From Candidatus Nanohalarchaeota archaeon (GTDB lineage: Archaea > Nanohalarchaeota > Nanosalinia > Nanosalinales > Nanosalinaceae), in the NCBI GenBank assembly GCA_022729235.1, contig JALDAJ010000001.1, forward strand, positions 768,001-832,000: a DNA stretch of 64,000 nt. The letters run 5' to 3'. A program made the position numbers and the translations under genes. The notes under the pieces are model-generated. The model made no database searches. It was not told the origin of the DNA and saw only the letters and a list, made by a program, of their open reading frames with translations. Below are positions 40,726 through 54,712 of the stretch, piece after piece. Each line of letters starts with the position of its first letter. Within the stretch, counting starts at the first letter, position 1.

Positions 40726-41229
40726 CTACTCGAACGAGAGTTCGTAGTCAGTTCCGGTAACCCAGTTGATTATCTTCTCGAACTCGTCTGTTGATAGGTT
40801 GATCTTGCCCTCGTAGCTTTCATCGACTACTATCTTCTGGTGTTCTCCGTCCGGTTTGAAGACGGTGTTGATGGATTCTACTTCTGCGGGCGATAGCAGT
40901 CCTTTGATGACTTCCATATCGCTCTCTGCTGCCTCAACTACTCTTATCGATTTCTCTATCCTATCCGCCAGTTCTTTGACTATCTCCCCGTTTCTACCGA
41001 CGACCTTTGCACCATCACCCTCTGCAGTTATCACAGCTACCACGTTTTCCATGTCAAATACTTTCTTGATTTCTGAGTCTTTCAGGGAACCGTAGTCAGT
41101 GGAAAGGTCCTGGAGTATCCGGGAGATTTTGATGTCGATTTCGTCTATTTCTGCCTCGTCGAGCTTCTCCTCGCATCCTGAACAGAGCTGGTCGCTCTTG
41201 AGACATACGTTACAGATTGGAGCCTTCAT
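40726..41229 (-). CDS. NusA-like KH domain protein with N-terminal zinc finger
   Basis: PICNVCLKSD.LCSGC; VVGRNG KH loop; IRVVE. Confidence 0.8.
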   Translation of the reverse strand: MKAPICNVCLKSDQLCSGCEEKLDEAEIDEIDIKISRILQDLSTDYGSLKDSEIKKVFDMENVVAVITAEGDGAKVVGRNGEIVKELADRIEKSIRVVEAAESDMEVIKGLLSPAEVESINTVFKPDGEHQKIVVDESYEGKINLSTDEFEKIINWVTGTDYELSFE

Positions 41230-41288
41230 GTTTTAGCCGGCGCGTGCAACAATTAAATAAATGAGGACACTGCCATATTGCTTTCCGG

Positions 41289-41798
41289 CTAAATCTTGTA
41301 CAGCTGGTGGATAAGTCTCAAAGAGTCGTAAATCGCGAGTAGCGCGATGAACAGGACGCCGTAGAATAGGAAGTAAGGGTTGAAGCTGTACGCTACGAGC
41401 GCCAATGCAAGAACTATGAGGCGCCCTTCTCTTGCGATATCTGGTGAGAAGGTTTCCCTGAGAGACTGCTCTGTTTCCAACCGCAGTATTTCCGCGAATG
41501 CCACTGAGGCGAGTAGTATTGCTGCAGCGTACTTAGGGATAATCGGCAGCGATACCGCGCCCAGGAGAAGTATAAGCTCGTAAAGAGTATTTGAGGATAC
41601 CAGTGCAACTTTCATCTGGTCGGTTCTCCCGCTCTGCAGAGACGACTTTTCCGCTGATCTCATCAGTGCGAGAGCTGAAACAGTTGCTACTCCTGCCACT
41701 ACTCCGGTATATTCTGCCTGTGTCGTTAGAATAGATGCGGCGGAGAGAGCCAGTAATAGTACGCCGGCGAGTCTGAAGTAGAACTTGTTTCTTACCAC
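41289..41798 (-). CDS. membrane protein, possibly a degenerate CDP-alcohol phosphatidyltransferase
   Basis: About 6 TM segments; REGRL motif near C-terminus; catalytic aspartates absent. Confidence 0.45.
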   Translation of the reverse strand: MVRNKFYFRLAGVLLLALSAASILTTQAEYTGVVAGVATVSALALMRSAEKSSLQSGRTDQMKVALVSSNTLYELILLLGAVSLPIIPKYAAAILLASVAFAEILRLETEQSLRETFSPDIAREGRLIVLALALVAYSFNPYFLFYGVLFIALLAIYDSLRLIHQLYKI

Positions 41799-41872
41799 AT
41801 CTTAGGGACAGGTTTCCAGAGTTAAACATTTTTTCCTGCCAAAAACCAGGTTGGAAAGAAAATAAGTGAAAT

Positions 41873-42006
41873 GGCGAGGTCCTCCGCGGGGGGGAGGGGG
41901 TTGTGTTCTTGTGTTGCGGAGGGCCTGCCGGTGAATATAAATCAGAGGAGATCCCGGGCTGTTGGGGGGGAAGGGGTATTGTGTGAGCCCGTGAGGACCT
42001 CCTCCG
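41873..42006. repeat. two tandem hairpins with related C-rich loops (G-rich on + strand)
   Basis: Stems 41873-41929 and 41943-42006; minus-strand loops ...ACACAACCCCCTCCCCCC and CACACAATACCCCTTCCCCCCCAAC. Confidence 0.7.
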
Positions 42007-42073
42007 GTTGAAATATTGTTTTTACGAAAATCAGAGATTTCCTGGAAATCCAGAAAACCTCCGGTTTTCGCCT

Positions 42074-43144
42074 CTACTTCATGACTTCCAGTCCCAGGTC
42101 GTTGACGTCACCTGATACCTCTGTTTCGGTTTCCTCTTCCACGTCTCCGAGGATGTAAGGTGATTCAACCCCGGTTACGATGGATATGACCTGTATTTTA
42201 CCTTCAAGCTGTTCTTTCACTCTCGCACCCCATATCACCTGGGCGTGGTCGTCGAGGTTGCCCTGGACTGTCTGACCGACGTCGTTGATCTCGTTGAGCG
42301 TCAGATCCTGTCCTCCAGCTACATGGATTAGAGCTCCGTTGGCGTCCTCAAAGCTGACGTCAAGTAGTGGGTTGGATAATGCTTCGTGGATCGCTTCTTC
42401 TCCTTTGTTATTCGTATCTGATTCTCCGTATCCTACTACTGCTACTCCTCCCTGGTTCATCACTGCTCTTACGTCTGCATAGTCCAGATTGACGAGGGAC
42501 GGCTTGGAGATAGTTTCTGTAACGCCTTTTATCATCGTAGTTATGAGTTCATCCGCGACTCCGAACGCCTGGTCAAGAGGCATGTCGCCTGCGATGTCGA
42601 GCAGTCGGTCGTTTTCGATTACAATCGCGGTGTCGACATGCTGTCTCATCCGGTATAAGCCGTCTTCTGCCTTGGACATTCTTGCTCCTTCTATCTCGAA
42701 AGGCATTGTAACGGTTCCGATTACGATGCAGTCTTCTTTCTTTGCGATTTCTGCTAGTACAGGTGCGGCACCAGTACCTGTTCCTCCGCCAAGTCCGCAG
42801 GTTACAAAGACCATGTCTGCGTCAGCGAATAATTTTCTTAGTTCCGCACGGTTCTCTTCCGCGCTTCTCTCACCTTTTTGAGGGTGTCCTCCTGCACCGA
42901 GACCCTTTGTCAGGTCACGTCCGATGAGTATCTTTCTATCGGCGCTGGAAATTTCCAGGTGCTGTTTATCGGTATTGATAGCTACAGTCTCGGCACCGTC
43001 AACATTCTTTTTCTGGATGCGCGTTACCTGGTTGTTGCCGGCTCCGCCGACTCCTACAACCAATATTTTAGCATCTTTAACATCCTCTAGGTTAGAGGTT
43101 TTAGCCTGTTCTTGGGATTGCGTGTTGTTGATTATGGATTCCAT
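42074..43144 (-). CDS. ftsZ: cell division protein FtsZ
   Basis: [29 protein letters not shown]. Confidence 0.98.
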
Positions 43145-43223
43145 CTTGTATCGTCCTGCGCGATAGCTATGCCTAACCTTTTTAAACCGGCATAGGTAAT
43201 TCTACCTTAGAACAAACGCAATT

Positions 43224-43339
43224 GCCCAACTTACACGTATTCAAGCCCAATCGTCGATTCGAAGCCCAATTCGAATCATGTGATCCAACTCGCGCCCAAA
43301 CGAGTTCGATCCGAGTCGTTTCACGGCCCAACGTGAAAC
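43224..43339. repeat. five GCCCAA motifs, three in loops of perfect hairpins
   Basis: GCCCAA at 43224, 43245, 43264, 43294, 43326; stems GATTCGAA/TTCGAATC, AACTCG/CGAGTT, GTTTCACG/CGTGAAAC. Confidence 0.8.
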
Positions 43340-43430
43340 AATCTGAGCTTATACTAGTACATTTTCTAGCCCGGTTTATAAATGTTACTTCTGTATCGTG
43401 TTCTATCGATGTTCACGAGTTCTGAACACT

Positions 43431-43448
43431 AACTGTTCATGAACAGTT
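43431..43448. promoter_or_regulatory. perfect 18-bp palindrome upstream of gatC
   Basis: AACTGTTCATGAACAGTT, flanked by further GTTC(A) half-sites. Confidence 0.55.
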
Positions 43449-43500
43449 CATGCTACTGGTTTTGGAATGATACAAAAAGATTCGCTGTAACTCATGGTAC

Positions 43501-43779
43501 ATGGTCGATCAGGAGGAGGTTCAAGGAGTCGCGGAGAACGCACGGCTGAACTTGACTGAAGACGAGGCGGAAGAGTTTACCGAGGACTTCGAGTCGATCC
43601 TGGAGATGTTTGAGACCCTGGATCAGGTTGATACTGATGATGTGGAGCCGGCGTTCCATCCTGTCGAAGTGGAACCCGAGACCAGGGAGGACAGGAAAGA
43701 AGTTGGTCTTTCCCATGACGAGGTCTTCCAGAACACGGATAATGTGGAAGACAATAAATTCAAGGGTCCTTCAGTTTAA
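43501..43779 (+). CDS. gatC: Asp/Glu-tRNA amidotransferase subunit C
   Basis: VA.NARL.L...E, VDT.DVEP, RED, FKGP. Confidence 0.9.
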   Translation: MVDQEEVQGVAENARLNLTEDEAEEFTEDFESILEMFETLDQVDTDDVEPAFHPVEVEPETREDRKEVGLSHDEVFQNTDNVEDNKFKGPSV

Positions 43780-43782
43780 GGT

Positions 43783-44274
43783 ATGAAACTCGGAATAATC
43801 TCTGACACCCACGACAACCTCGACTTGACGCGTGAAGCTATAGATTTCTTTGAAGAACAGGAGACTGACGCAGTTGTCCATTGCGGTGACATGGTCGCGC
43901 CTTTTACTGCAGAGCTTTTCGACCGCGACAGCTTCGACTTCTACGCGGTCAGGGGTAACAACGACGGTGAGTGGAACCTGAAGTCGACTGTCCATGCGTT
44001 CGGCGAGTTTTTCAATAACGTGGCAGAGCTCGAGCTCTCCGGTAAGAGTATTGCGGTATATCACGGGACAGAAGAGTCTATCGTTGATTCCCTGGTTCTA
44101 TCCGGTGAGTACGATTACGTGCTCCGCGGACACACGCATGAGAAAAAATTGAGGGAGGAGAACGGTACTATAGAAGTTAATCCTGGCGGTATCAAGCTTC
44201 CTGGTAGTGAAGAGGAGTTCCACGTTGCCACGCTGGATCTGGAGTCGGGCGAGATAGAGTTTCATAAGGTGTAG
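43783..44274 (+). CDS. YfcE/MJ0936 family metallophosphoesterase
   Basis: ISDTHDN, HCGD, GNND, HG, GHTH, NPG. Confidence 0.92.
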   Translation: MKLGIISDTHDNLDLTREAIDFFEEQETDAVVHCGDMVAPFTAELFDRDSFDFYAVRGNNDGEWNLKSTVHAFGEFFNNVAELELSGKSIAVYHGTEESIVDSLVLSGEYDYVLRGHTHEKKLREENGTIEVNPGGIKLPGSEEEFHVATLDLESGEIEFHKV

Positions 44275-45421
44275 AGGTGTAGGATTCTTCAAGGAGTTCG
44301 ACCATTGAAACAGGAGGTCTGTTGCGCTCCTCCGGGTCTGCCTCTTCGAGTAGCTGTTTTAGATCTGCCTGGTGCTGCGCTCCTGCGATAACCCATATCT
44401 CATCTTCTCCAGCATCCCAGCTCTTTCTCAATGCCTTATTGTGCATGTATTTCGATCGTTCCCAGCTGACGATAGGGCGGAAGCCGCGTGAGGCTTTCTT
44501 GAACATGAGACGTTTCTTCTTGAGTTTCAGGATCTGGTTACGGTACCAATCTGCAACATGACCGGTCACACCTCGTGGGTTATAGTTTCTTGATGCCTGT
44601 ATCTTCTCGTTGAGAACGGTTTCTTGTTCTCTTACTTCGCCAAGTCTCTTGTCCCAGTAGTCCTGCCTGAAACGCAGCGGTAACTGCATGTCCTTGATGT
44701 AAGCCTGTGTTCTCGGGATCTCTCGCGGGTCGTTTAGACCCCGATAGGCGGATCTGACAGGTGTGATGGTTCTGCCTTCCCTATCCTGGCGTTCAGCCTG
44801 CTTGACAGCTGACTCTGCAATAGGTCCCAGAACGTGGTTTAAAAACGGTTTCATCAGGAACTTGACGCCTAGCCGTGCTCCCTTTCCGAACAACATGCCC
44901 TGGTCATCCAGCAATTTCCTGTCGTCAAGCTCGATGACTTGTTCGCTGTCCTCAAAATGATTGTTGAAAAGTACGTCATCGAACCCATCTTCTAGGTATA
45001 CCTGACCTCTGTCAGCCATTCTCTCAATTTCTTCTCTCAGGTAGTCCCTGGTTTCATCACCCATCTTAAGGAAACCCCGTTGCCCGTGCGGGATACCAGC
45101 CACGTTCAGATCTACGTCTAGGACCTGGTTTTCACGACTCATATGCAGGTTATACTGGTCGCAAGGCAGACTGTATGTGTCTGATAGAAGCGGTATCTCT
45201 CGATTTCTGAGCTTCCAGATATCCTCTTCTGCAGCTTGGAAAAGCTTACGTACTGATTCGAATTCGAAACCTTTCTGCCTGTAAATAGTTTCCAGATCGT
45301 CTAAATCGTTTGCCTCGCTGAAATCATTCTGCTGGAGTACAGGTTCTTCCCTTGATTCTATCTCCTCCAGTCCTGCCTCCTCTGGTTGCGAAGCACTTTC
45401 TAGAGTTCTGGTCTCTGGCAT
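44192..45421 (-). CDS. hypothetical protein, possibly divergent TraB/TIKI family
   Basis: GIPH, VYLE, ERSKYM and IAGAQH resemble TraB motifs; convergent overlap with the phosphoesterase gene. Confidence 0.5.
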   Translation of the reverse strand: MPETRTLESASQPEEAGLEEIESREEPVLQQNDFSEANDLDDLETIYRQKGFEFESVRKLFQAAEEDIWKLRNREIPLLSDTYSLPCDQYNLHMSRENQVLDVDLNVAGIPHGQRGFLKMGDETRDYLREEIERMADRGQVYLEDGFDDVLFNNHFEDSEQVIELDDRKLLDDQGMLFGKGARLGVKFLMKPFLNHVLGPIAESAVKQAERQDREGRTITPVRSAYRGLNDPREIPRTQAYIKDMQLPLRFRQDYWDKRLGEVREQETVLNEKIQASRNYNPRGVTGHVADWYRNQILKLKKKRLMFKKASRGFRPIVSWERSKYMHNKALRKSWDAGEDEIWVIAGAQHQADLKQLLEEADPEERNRPPVSMVELLEESYTSTPYETLSRPTPDPAWQRGTPLHYQEA

Positions 45422-45548
45422 GATACCATGGGCATCCCCGTACCTCAAATCTTAAATCGTTAATCGCTCTTAAACACGCTTTAAATCCCTTGCCGCGGCG
45501 GAACGTATGCAAATCTTCATTAGCATCAGGTACAACAGTTCACTAGGC

Positions 45549-45674
45549 ATGAAGATCAGGTGTCCAGAGTGCGGCGGTGAGATGAGCTGGGAAGGCTACC
45601 GCCCGTTATTCGCGACCTGCACTGAGTGCGGAGAAAGTTTCCACGTGGACGAGTGTGAAGTTTCCGGAGAATGA
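45549..45674 (+). CDS. CPxCG-type zinc-finger microprotein (41 aa)
   Basis: MKIRCPECGGEM...TCTECGESF; absent from the ORF track. Confidence 0.75.
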   Translation: MKIRCPECGGEMSWEGYRPLFATCTECGESFHVDECEVSGE

Positions 45675-45705
45675 ATTTTTAAGAGTCGCCGAGGATTCCA
45701 GAGGT

Positions 45706-47073
45706 ATGACTACTGTAAAAGATGTGATCGAAAACGGTCAGGAAGTAGACCACGACAAATTTCTGGAAGAACTACAGGAGAAGAACTCCGAGCTTAACTT
45801 CATGCGCGAGATAGAGCAGGGAAAGGAGAGGGGCGGTGACCTCAACGGCATCCCTTTCGTTGTGAAGGATGCTATCTGTACTAAAGACGTGACTACTAGC
45901 GCAGGCTCGAAGATAATCGAGGATTACCAGCCTGTTTTCGATGCTACAGTTGTTGACCGTTTGAAAGCCTCAGGAGCAAGGTTCTATGGTAAGACGCAGC
46001 AGGACGAGTTCGGTTTCGGATCTTTCTGCACCAATACCGCGTTCGAAACCCCGAGGAACCCTCACGACCCGGAACGTGTTGTTGGAGGTTCTTCAGGAGG
46101 CGCTGGAGCGGTCGTCGCGGCGATGGAGCATCCTGTTATCTCTATCGGCGAGTCTACGGGTGGTTCGATAACTAATCCTGCGGCTTACAACGGCGTCGTC
46201 GGCATTACACCTACTTATGGAAGGGTTTCTCGCCACGGTTTGATTAGCTACGCGAATTCGCTTGACAAGATAGGCGTGCTTGCGAAGACTGTTTTCAGCG
46301 CGGCTAAGGGTCTTGAAGTCATCGCTGGGCGTGACGGTAACGATCATACTACAGCGAGAGAGAAAGTGCCGGGTTACGCGGAGAACCTGCGAGAGGTTTC
46401 CGACCTGAAAATTGGCGTTCCCAACCAGTACATCGAACTGGAGGGTCTACAGTCCGGGGTGCATGAAAACTTCCAGGAGTCGTTAGAAAAGCTGGAGGAG
46501 GCTGGAGCTGAGGTCGAAAGAGTAGACATGCCGATGCTTTCCCGCGACTACTCGCTTCCCGCATACTATATCCTGGCGATGGCGGAGGCATCAACCAACC
46601 TGGCGAAGTTCTCTGGAATGCGCTACGGTCTTGAGCTTGATCCCGAGGACTTCAACGACTTCAACGAGTACTTCTCCTCAGTACGTTCCGAAGGATTCGG
46701 TGAGGAAGCGAAGAGAAGAATTCTGGTTGGAACCTACACTAGGATGGCAGGTTACCGTGATCAGTACTACCTGAAAGCCGCCAAGGTCAGGCAGAAGATA
46801 ATCGACGAGTTCAAAGAGGCGTTCAGAGAGTACGACGTACTTGCATCACCGTCCATGCCCAACATCGCTCCGAAGATTTCTGAGGCAGAGTCGATGAGCC
46901 CGACAGAGATGTACGCCATGGACACGCTTACCGTCGGTCCGAACCTTGCAGGTATGCCGATGGTATCCGTGCCGAACGGGAAAAGCAACGGGATGCCGAC
47001 CGGTCTACACCTGATAGGCGACCACTTCGAGGAGCAGAAAGTACTGGATGTGGCGTATACTTTTGAAAAATAA
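45706..47073 (+). CDS. gatA: Asp/Glu-tRNA amidotransferase subunit A
   Basis: VKD, GGSSGG, TGGS, PTYGRVSR, GFGEEAKRRI. Confidence 0.95.
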   Translation: MTTVKDVIENGQEVDHDKFLEELQEKNSELNFMREIEQGKERGGDLNGIPFVVKDAICTKDVTTSAGSKIIEDYQPVFDATVVDRLKASGARFYGKTQQDEFGFGSFCTNTAFETPRNPHDPERVVGGSSGGAGAVVAAMEHPVISIGESTGGSITNPAAYNGVVGITPTYGRVSRHGLISYANSLDKIGVLAKTVFSAAKGLEVIAGRDGNDHTTAREKVPGYAENLREVSDLKIGVPNQYIELEGLQSGVHENFQESLEKLEEAGAEVERVDMPMLSRDYSLPAYYILAMAEASTNLAKFSGMRYGLELDPEDFNDFNEYFSSVRSEGFGEEAKRRILVGTYTRMAGYRDQYYLKAAKVRQKIIDEFKEAFREYDVLASPSMPNIAPKISEAESMSPTEMYAMDTLTVGPNLAGMPMVSVPNGKSNGMPTGLHLIGDHFEEQKVLDVAYTFEK

Positions 47074-52518: not shown

Positions 52519-52663
52519 CGAGCCCGCAGGGATTTGAACCCTGGACCTTTCGGTATCTTCTATCGAAAATCACGGGACCGTGATTTTCTTAGTCCTCGTT
52601 CTCCAGGAGGGAGAACTTGAGGAGCCGAAGCCGAATGCTCTGTCCGGACTGAGCTACGGGCCC
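52519..52663 (-). tRNA. tRNA-Arg(UCG) with 70-nt intron at 37/38 (52555-52624)
   Basis: Acceptor GGGCCCG/CGGGCTC, anticodon stem TTCGG/CCGAA, loop CT-TCG-G|A, TTCAAAT T-loop; CTTC/GAAG central helix of a bulge-helix-bulge motif. Confidence 0.92.
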
Positions 52664-54640: not shown

Positions 54641-54712
54641 GCGGAGTTGGTCCAGTGGCTAAGACTCCAGCCTTCCAAGCTGGCGACCCGGGTTCAAATC
54701 CCGGACTCCGCA
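54641..54712 (+). tRNA. tRNA-Gly(UCC)
   Basis: GCGGAGT/ACTCCGC acceptor, CCAGC-CT-TCC-AA-GCTGG anticodon arm, TTCAAAT T-loop; TTTAAAA promoter at 54601. Confidence 0.96.

Follow-up and report, generated by a model that had tools for sequence, protein, structure and literature searches.

The ftsZ1 locus and its loop array

The source genome is a single contig of 1,027,595 bases with 48.5% G+C, and the window, by which we mean the whole stretch of 64,000 nucleotides analyzed, corresponds to its bases 768001–832000. On the minus strand of this window lies ftsZ1 (42074–43144), which encodes FtsZ (Pfam Tubulin, 6e-46; FtsZ_C, 1e-31), on the plus strand lies gatC (43501–43779), and the 356-nt spacer between gatC and ftsZ1 holds an array of the hexamer GCCCAA, which in the sense of ftsZ1 reads UUGGGC. 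A previous sequence-only reading had called attention to five copies within some 110 nt upstream of ftsZ, three of them displayed on stems of 8, 6, and 8 bp. All five were located (plus-strand starts at 43224, 43245, 43264, 43294, and 43326, with spacings of 21, 19, 30, and 32 nt, the array occupying 43224–43331), and the three stems were recovered, that of 6 bp with a closing U.G in addition. In the direction of ftsZ1, the elements of the array are the following:

43316–43341, minus strand: hairpin H1, loop UUGGGC, with 8 Watson-Crick bp plus G.U plus one more pair.
43287–43306, extendable to 43282–43311, minus strand: hairpin H2, loop U-UUGGGC-G, with 6 bp plus the closing U.G.
43255–43278, minus strand: hairpin H3, loop UUGGGC, with an 8-bp stem.
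43245–43250, minus strand: fourth UUGGGC copy, without a good stem in the source genome.
43224–43229, minus strand: fifth UUGGGC copy, with a weak stem, none being convincing in the source genome.

The three hairpins appear alike in the MFE and in the centroid structure of a 211-nt fold (z = −2.3; 5 of 200 shuffles equal it).

The concentration of the hexamer at this point is peculiar to the locus. The array holds five of the 11 copies of GCCCAA in the 64-kb window, where dinucleotide shuffles of the whole window give 19.9 ± 4.5, and from the density in these shuffles about 0.04 copies would be calculated for 116 nt. The genome carries 128 copies on both strands, as against 105 expected under a fourth-order Markov model, so that there is no specific genome-wide avoidance of the word, and its scarcity comes solely from that of its sub-words. 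Three or more copies within 150 nt occur nowhere but at ftsZ1, and in the 1.03 Mb a TTGGGC loop is carried by four hairpins, three of them those of the array and one within a long ORF. In other words, the search for the loop in other leaders, proposed with the sequence-only reading, turned up no other such cluster in the 1.03-Mb genome, and neither the genome-wide cluster scan nor that of loop hairpins found a second array, for example before ftsZ2.

Other features of the surroundings may be recorded here. Two ORFs of the minus strand have no match in Pfam or NCBIfam, one of 418 aa (44192–45448) and one of 169 aa (41289–41798), the latter hydrophobic, poorly conserved, and found in 14 of 30 loci. 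The program aragorn predicts 35 tRNAs when its intron mode is on and 15 when it is off; in the window, a tRNA-Arg is placed at 52519–52663 and a tRNA-Gly at 54641–54712. As many of the predicted genes measure 130–190 nt, long tRNA introns seem to be common in the source genome.

The sample of the phylum comprised 70 genomes of one order and five families (f1 to f5), and an orthologue of ftsZ1 (E ≤ 1e-120) was present in 62 of them; the upstream regions of 44 genomes were compared (30 loci and 15 more, one duplicate genome having been dropped). In 26 of the 30 loci the upstream region contains 2–6 copies of TTGGGC on the sense strand, no more than 260 nt from the ATG, with one copy in the opposite orientation, and in the other four the corresponding hairpins carry TGGGA. 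The array is found at ftsZ1 in all five families with a similar layout and 3–7 cores per leader (median 5 in the 44 genomes, one wrongly delimited leader excepted), and throughout these 44 genomes it lies between an archaeal-type promoter and the start codon, always on the sense strand of this one gene, a position that characterizes a leader RNA. In four closed genomes of relatives, nine of the 10 matches to TTGGGC pairs 12–42 nt apart are at ftsZ1, while a fifth, from family f3, has no such pair. The 18-nt core of H2 matched 30 contigs, 16 of Nanohaloarchaea, six labeled ‘uncultured archaeon’, and eight scattered bacterial ones, which are taken as chance. The neighbor upstream of ftsZ1 is gatC in 28 of 30 loci; families f2 and f5 have there a divergent gene, read as AspRS-like, and one f3 genome a co-directional ORF, so that the array has been kept with ftsZ1 despite differing neighbors. 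An Rfam 15 cmscan of 41000–46000 (E ≤ 10) gave five weak matches, none in 43145–43500, in agreement with the earlier description of the element as new, and none in 41799–42073, which is considered below. The literature search found no description of an ftsZ1 loop-array element, and the accessible part of PMC7565180 contains nothing on the ftsZ1 leader locus. As judged from these sequence comparisons, the element is phylum-wide, specific to ftsZ1, of the structured-RNA type, and previously undescribed.

The distal promoter and the predicted transcript

Between gatC and the array, and again between the array and the start codon, the spacer contains further elements:

43375–43386, minus strand: promoter P1, BRE-like AACA plus the TATA box TTTATAAA, which is a strict TTTATA[AT]A in 36 of the 44 orthologous regions.
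43352, minus strand: predicted transcription start, the A of a conserved TA, 30 nt from the TATA start, from the spacing of P1 and the coordinates.
43200–43212, minus strand: palindrome TTCTA-AGG-TAGAA, its sequence conserved in 23 f1 genomes, with seven of eight departures being U.G.
43167–43195, minus strand: hairpin HT, stem CUAUGCC/GGCAUAG, loop GGUUUAAAAAGGUUA, with compensatory changes at four of seven pairs in f1.
43179–43186, minus strand: TATA-like TTTAAAAA, possible second promoter P2, inside the HT loop and 34 nt ahead of the ATG.
43150–43156, minus strand: Shine-Dalgarno-like GGACGAU, 5 nt ahead of the ATG (43142–43144).

The box TTTATAAA had been reported at 43375–43382, where it indeed lies, with the suggestion that it could drive a minus-strand transcript, and the comparison of relatives strengthens this suggestion, in that the box appears to belong to a complete and directional archaeal promoter aimed at ftsZ1. 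Around it, in the 36 regions with the strict form, A occupies positions −4/−3 in 94/100%, AA stands at +19/+20 in 97%, and the start signal T/A at +29/+30 in 78/83%; P1 has all the parts of an archaeal promoter (BRE, TATA, −10/−11 element, and a start that follows the beginning of the TATA box by about 30 nt), the AA at −10/−11 corresponding to the ‘WW element’. Over 931 ORFs, TATA-like hexamers peak at −33 to −28 from the ATG (125 in two bins vs. about 8 per bin elsewhere), which makes leaderless mRNAs the rule in the source genome, and because the TATA-to-start spacing of P1 matches this genome-wide distance, the start was placed at 43352, some 10 nt ahead of H1. In the 30 loci, 206–324 nt separate the TATA box of P1 from the ATG, an exceptional distance in a genome of this kind, and the first loop follows P1 at 41–118 nt, mostly 50–60. 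Runs of five or more T constitute the archaeal termination signal; such a run occurs in three of the 44 leaders, as against 0.46 runs per 200 nt in the non-ORF DNA of the source genome, and in 41 of the 44 no oligo-T run is found from the array to the ATG. We infer from this arrangement that transcription would proceed from P1 through the array and into ftsZ1.

On the other side of the spacer, the TATA-like TACAAAAAG ends 21 nt ahead of the ATG of gatC (43460–43500, plus strand), so that gatC is probably leaderless, which underlines how unusual the leader of ftsZ1 is. Just upstream of P1, at 43410–43445, there are four copies of TGAACA/TGTTCA in 36 nt, the sole cluster of at least four in 70 nt in the genome, and (G/A)TGAACAG repeats occupy the corresponding place in many relatives; this cluster is probably a transcription-factor site common to the divergent promoters of ftsZ1 and gatC.

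The part of the leader that follows the array admits more than one use. The TTCTA-AGG-TAGAA palindrome, to which boxes in f3 and f4 are related, could be read as a small hairpin of the RNA or else as a site at which a transcription factor binds the DNA. The stem of HT is CUAUACC/GGUAUAG in relatives and, read by eye, of the GCGCCG/CGGCGC type in f4, and its A-rich loop GGUUUAAAAAGGUUA is nearly invariant among relatives. The 3′ end of the 16S rRNA reads GGATCACCTCCA, and the f4 orthologues carry GAGGTGA at the Shine-Dalgarno position. The 11-mer GGACGATACAA (43146–43156) has one further copy in the genome, at contig position 748213, outside the window, in another 5′ region, where it stands between a box TTTATAAC and the start codon, ATG, for a protein of 272 aa with an N-terminus that resembles a TrmB-type regulator; this recurrence may be due to chance.

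A different division of the same spacer would make the array a separate small ncRNA of about 150–190 nt, transcribed from P1 and ending before or at HT, which would act as a sponge in trans or interfere with a second promoter, while ftsZ1 would be transcribed from the proximal TTTAAAAA under a factor bound at TTCTA-N3-TAGAA. The resemblance of TTTAAAAAGG to ordinary TATA boxes, together with the distance from TTTAAAAA to the ATG, which is that of a minor short-leader promoter class in the source genome, makes such a second promoter possible, with the palindrome as the factor site, and ftsZ1 could be transcribed mainly from it. Moreover, the palindrome that closely precedes it has kept its sequence, which is what one would expect of a DNA site; in Haloferax volcanii, according to the accessible part of PMC8406309, the start of ftsZ1 is preceded at about 50 nt by a symmetric motif to which CdrS binds; and the part of PMC7002113 available records a conserved 266-nt nanohaloarchaeal intergenic RNA in a halite metatranscriptome. 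Against this division, the stretch from the array to the ATG is free of oligo-T runs in all but three leaders, the proximal box lacks the AA at −4/−3 and at +19/+20 that accompanies P1, and covariation is seen in the stem that encloses TTTAAAAA, from which it follows that the box is itself transcribed. A separate RNA is accordingly, in our estimation, unlikely, while deserving to be kept in mind beside a leader that continues into ftsZ1.

Loops, stems, and the elements on either side of ftsZ1

The relation between loops and stems among the orthologues is what gives the array its RNA character. Cores of the type GGG[CA] are enclosed by stems of at least 5 bp in 139 of 251 cases in the sense upstream regions, vs. 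three of 36 on the antisense strand there and 64 of 1140 in the remainder of the loci. Uninterrupted stems of at least 5 bp number 1–5 per leader (median 3; 44 genomes), and the fourth core, bare in the source genome, is within such a stem in 49% of 41 orthologues. When hairpins were picked solely by loop and by order after the promoter, the median stem measured 7–8 bp with both arms from one genome and 3–4 bp with the 5′ and 3′ arms taken from different genomes. H1 displays 23 distinct 5-bp stems among orthologues, and in a gapless alignment of 43 of them in fixed register its paired cells amount to 74.2%, vs. 44.1% when shuffled and 32–46% when the partner is slid, while double changes affect seven of its seven pairs in 102 cells, vs. 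42 ± 6 in shuffles (reached by none of 500); these shuffle statistics overstate the case because the genomes compared are kin, and the cis-vs.-trans and slid-partner controls are independent of that kinship. In H3, five of the six outer pairs have compensatory changes within f1. H2 has a variable outer stem and an inner stem, ACUCG/CGAGU, fixed in f1 (21 of 23) and replaced by a different one in other families. The covariation at orthologous upstream regions that had been named as a check is therefore favorable, with loops fixed and stems that vary yet stay complementary, and this conserved pairing with compensatory changes is the property of a structured cis-regulatory leader.

The same observations bear on the idea that the array acts as DNA, either because a DNA-binding protein recognizes the TTGGGC copies ahead of the proximal promoter or because the repeats form cruciforms. 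The spacings in the source genome are near multiples of the helical turn, and the element does lie upstream of a TATA-like box. However, the flanks differ between genomes and yet stay complementary around a core that is not itself palindromic (the 7–8 bp in cis and 3–4 bp in trans given above), where an array of transcription-factor sites would have no need of complementary flanks; the spacing is not preserved among orthologues; and a complete promoter upstream points through the array. A DNA-level element is, for these reasons, very improbable.

As for the strand, G.U vs. A.C counts are 32 vs. 23 and 14 vs. 17 in defined pairs, 29 vs. 22 in all stems, and 3 vs. 7 in strictly internal mismatches, and since they leave the strand undecided, the orientation of the array is taken from promoter and synteny alone. 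That these counts do not favor the sense strand, and that both TATA boxes are near-palindromic, would leave room for a functional opposite strand with GCCCAA loops, for example an antisense RNA from the reversed proximal TATA-like box toward gatC; we give this hardly any credit, as the BRE-like AA of P1, its AA at −10/−11, and the TA of its start are all on the ftsZ1 sense side, and the array is unchanged where the upstream neighbor is not gatC.

The loops themselves have changed by lineage. In most lineages they are U(U)GGGC, with the variants UGGGCA and CGGGCA; in three genera of f1 (g2, g13, and g18) all the hairpins have GUGGGA or UUGGGA; and in the one genome of f5 the loop is UUGGCG, arrays that mix loop types being rare. 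In the FtsZ1 tree, g18 groups with g2 in a clade (support 90/83) and g13 is placed elsewhere, in an unresolved group, so that the change from C to A may have occurred twice, on the reading of a single-gene tree of moderate support. A concerted change of this kind points to a co-evolving trans factor, as all copies changing together is what a shared reader of the loops would be expected to impose.

It has also to be considered whether the GGG runs could form an RNA G-quadruplex that blocks or tunes translation in a cytoplasm rich in K+, with the hairpins as a competing fold. Four or more GGG cores are present in 39 of 44 leaders, and the organisms are probably halophiles with high internal K+, to judge from their acidic proteins. 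But four G-runs are not present in every member, since five of the 44 leaders (one of them mis-delimited) have fewer than four cores and the loops of f5 have only GG; GGG is preceded by a conserved U and followed by a conserved C or A, bases that change together, and a quadruplex needs neither their conservation nor their joint change; and the selected stems hold GGG in hairpin loops. A quadruplex as the working form is thus extremely doubtful.

A second set of hairpins was found on the other side of the gene, in the 41799–42073 spacer:

41945–42005, minus strand: first C-loop hairpin, right after the ftsZ1 stop.
41873–41929, minus strand: second C-loop hairpin.

Their stems are variable and their large loops conserved, ACACU-CCCC-U-CCCCCC in the ftsZ1 sense and G-rich on the plus strand, and each has an ATATT box before it and a T-rich run after it. 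One or two long hairpins of this type follow ftsZ1 in each of the 30 loci whose 3′ side is covered, and likewise in f2, f4, and f5, and they may be a 3′ UTR element or one or more small RNA genes. Both elements flank ftsZ1 in all 30 of these loci with variable stems and fixed loops, GGG and CCC can pair, and some C-loops end in CCCAA, which gives 5 bp with UUGGG; it is then conceivable that the G-loops kiss the C-rich loops (ACACUCCCCUCCCCCC) after the ftsZ1 stop (41873–42005), within the mRNA or by way of a small RNA, which a molar intracellular K+ would help. Nevertheless, the complementarity is of 3–5 bp and is not conserved, the C-runs are unchanged in the UGGGA lineages and in the UUGGCG family, and GCCCAA is in none of the C-loops of the source genome, all of which makes kissing an improbable function of the array.

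A proposed docking leader and its possible readers

Identical loops, arbitrary stems, a variable number and spacing, the attachment to one mRNA, and a set of copies that co-evolves are together read as a leader for multivalent docking. The explanation to which we incline, with somewhat more confidence than doubt, is that the array forms the core of a structured 5′ leader of ftsZ1, of about 210 nt, which would offer several sites to a trans-acting factor, probably a protein. Its steps could have been: (i) transcription from P1 (43375–43386), with the predicted start at 43352 on the minus strand, would continue into ftsZ1; (ii) the leader RNA would fold into 3–6 hairpins with stems free to vary and the loop U(U)GGGC (UGGGA or UUGGCG in some lineages), to be followed after the array by the small palindrome, the hairpin with the A-rich loop, and the Shine-Dalgarno-like start site; (iii) one trans-acting factor would dock at the identical loops, most probably an RNA-binding protein that is oligomeric or has several domains; (iv) and finally, the occupancy of this factor would set the stability or the translation of the ftsZ1 mRNA, coupling division to some cellular state. 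The protein binding and the regulatory outcome at the leader are what we would deduce from the design of the array.

Among the proteins of the source genome, no RRM_1 protein was found (the control being informative), the PUF profile had no match in a search whose control was uninformative, and the ANTAR profile PF03861 had none in a search whose control matched nothing anywhere. KH_1 gave four matches in three open frames. A 167-aa protein (40726–41229, minus strand) combines a zinc ribbon, CxxC...CxxC, at its N-terminus with a NusA-like KH domain (PF13184, 2e-7; NF005013, 2e-40, below cut-off), and its gene is two genes downstream of ftsZ1 in 23 of 24 f1 loci and directly after the C-loop element in some relatives. 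The three KH_1 proteins and this Zn-ribbon/KH ‘NusA-like’ protein are the few candidates that the small genome offers for binding the leader. In the four genomes with UGGGA loops, no alignment column separates them from the rest either in the neighboring KH protein or in FtsZ1, a result that speaks neither for nor against these two proteins; as no residue tracks the type of loop, none of the candidates is supported yet.

RNA partners of the loop were also tried and rejected. None of the 35 aragorn tRNAs contains GCCCAA. In the rRNAs it occurs once in 16S (by position, in the helix 44 region) and once near the 5′ end of 23S, and the 16S site varies without matching the UGGGA and UUGGCG loops while the 23S site stays GCCCAA. 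In the early coding region of ftsZ1, UCCCAA (codons 10–12) is not conserved in orthologues.

A bolder construction would have ftsZ1 bracketed by two co-evolved and cooperating elements, the 5′ G-loops (UUGGGC, 3–6 copies) and the 3′ C-loops (ACACUCCCCUCCCCCC, 1–2 copies), joined by loop-loop kissing in molar K+ or by the KH-type protein two genes downstream, to yield a closed mRNA particle that gates the synthesis of the division scaffold. This is speculative and quite unlikely; if true, it would be the first gene-specific post-transcriptional division switch described in archaea, and one specific to a host-dependent DPANN lineage.

To return to the proposed docking leader, its significance would come from its context. 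Nanohaloarchaea are tiny, host-dependent cells whose division must fit life on the host. To our knowledge, descriptions of how archaeal division is controlled have been confined to transcription, for example through CdrS and CdrL, and we know of no archaeal counterpart of regulation by hairpin arrays of the CsrA or IRP type. As their mRNAs are normally leaderless, a leader that exceeds 200 nt, belongs to a single gene throughout the phylum, and repeats identical loops is a strong hint of a dedicated post-transcriptional control of FtsZ1. The leader is also a concrete bait for a new archaeal RNA-binding regulator, and the loop switches of particular lineages are a natural experiment on its specificity.

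Comparison with known systems separates the design of the array from its membership in any described class. In Haloferax volcanii, CdrS controls the transcription of ftsZ1 through a symmetric DNA motif just upstream of the promoter (PMC8406309, in the part accessible), and counterparts of that motif here could be the TTCTA-N3-TAGAA box and the TGAACA repeats; that control is at the DNA level, and the same part of PMC8406309 describes no hairpin array or long leader.

Among systems read as RNA, ANTAR targets consist of a pair of hairpins, no more and no fewer, whose hexaloops have A1 and G4 and which overlap a terminator. The ftsZ1 array resembles them in that its hairpins stand in tandem, with loops of six nucleotides, a conserved G in the loop, and stems that vary, but it has 3–6 of them, their loops begin with U, and in 41 of 44 leaders they are followed by no oligo-T run, and so falls outside the definition of the ANTAR target hairpin. 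The Smaug/Vts1 elements are CNGGN loops on non-specific stems, bound by a eukaryotic SAM-domain protein; the loop with a central GG on any stem is common to both, and the variants CGGGCA and CUGGGCA fit CNGGN, whereas most copies of the array begin with U.

The sequence-only reading had proposed an undescribed ncRNA or leader that would bind an RNA-binding protein multivalently, and had named CsrB/RsmZ for comparison. An undescribed ncRNA or leader is supported by the covariation, the absence of an Rfam match, and the directional P1, while the multivalent binding stays a supposition. The CsrA profile PF02599 found no match in the closed source genome, with a control that matched E. coli, B. 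subtilis, and T. maritima. The RNAs of CsrA/RsmA (CsrB, RsmZ, and leaders of the glgC type) are bacterial, with A(N)GGA loops, and their sponges are global, whereas the ftsZ1 array, in an archaeal host without a CsrA gene, is tied to one gene and has UUGGGC, UGGGCA, or CGGGCA in its loops, GGGA being found only in three genera. Alike are the display of a short G-rich loop motif on unrelated stems, the presence of several such hairpins in the same RNA, a presumed multivalent binding, and a copy number that differs between relatives, so that, CsrA being absent, the comparison with CsrB/RsmZ is an analogy of design and not of membership.

The same applies to the IREs, five hairpins in the transferrin-receptor 3′ UTR and one in the ferritin 5′ UTR, which are bound by IRP; this protein reads their loops by sequence and shape, and sets translation or stability. 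These elements are eukaryotic, with a CAGUGN loop plus a bulged C, and no relation of sequence or protein to the ftsZ1 array is implied; what they have in common with it is the form, that is, a series of hairpins within the UTR of one particular mRNA, with hexaloops that are identical and stems that are not.
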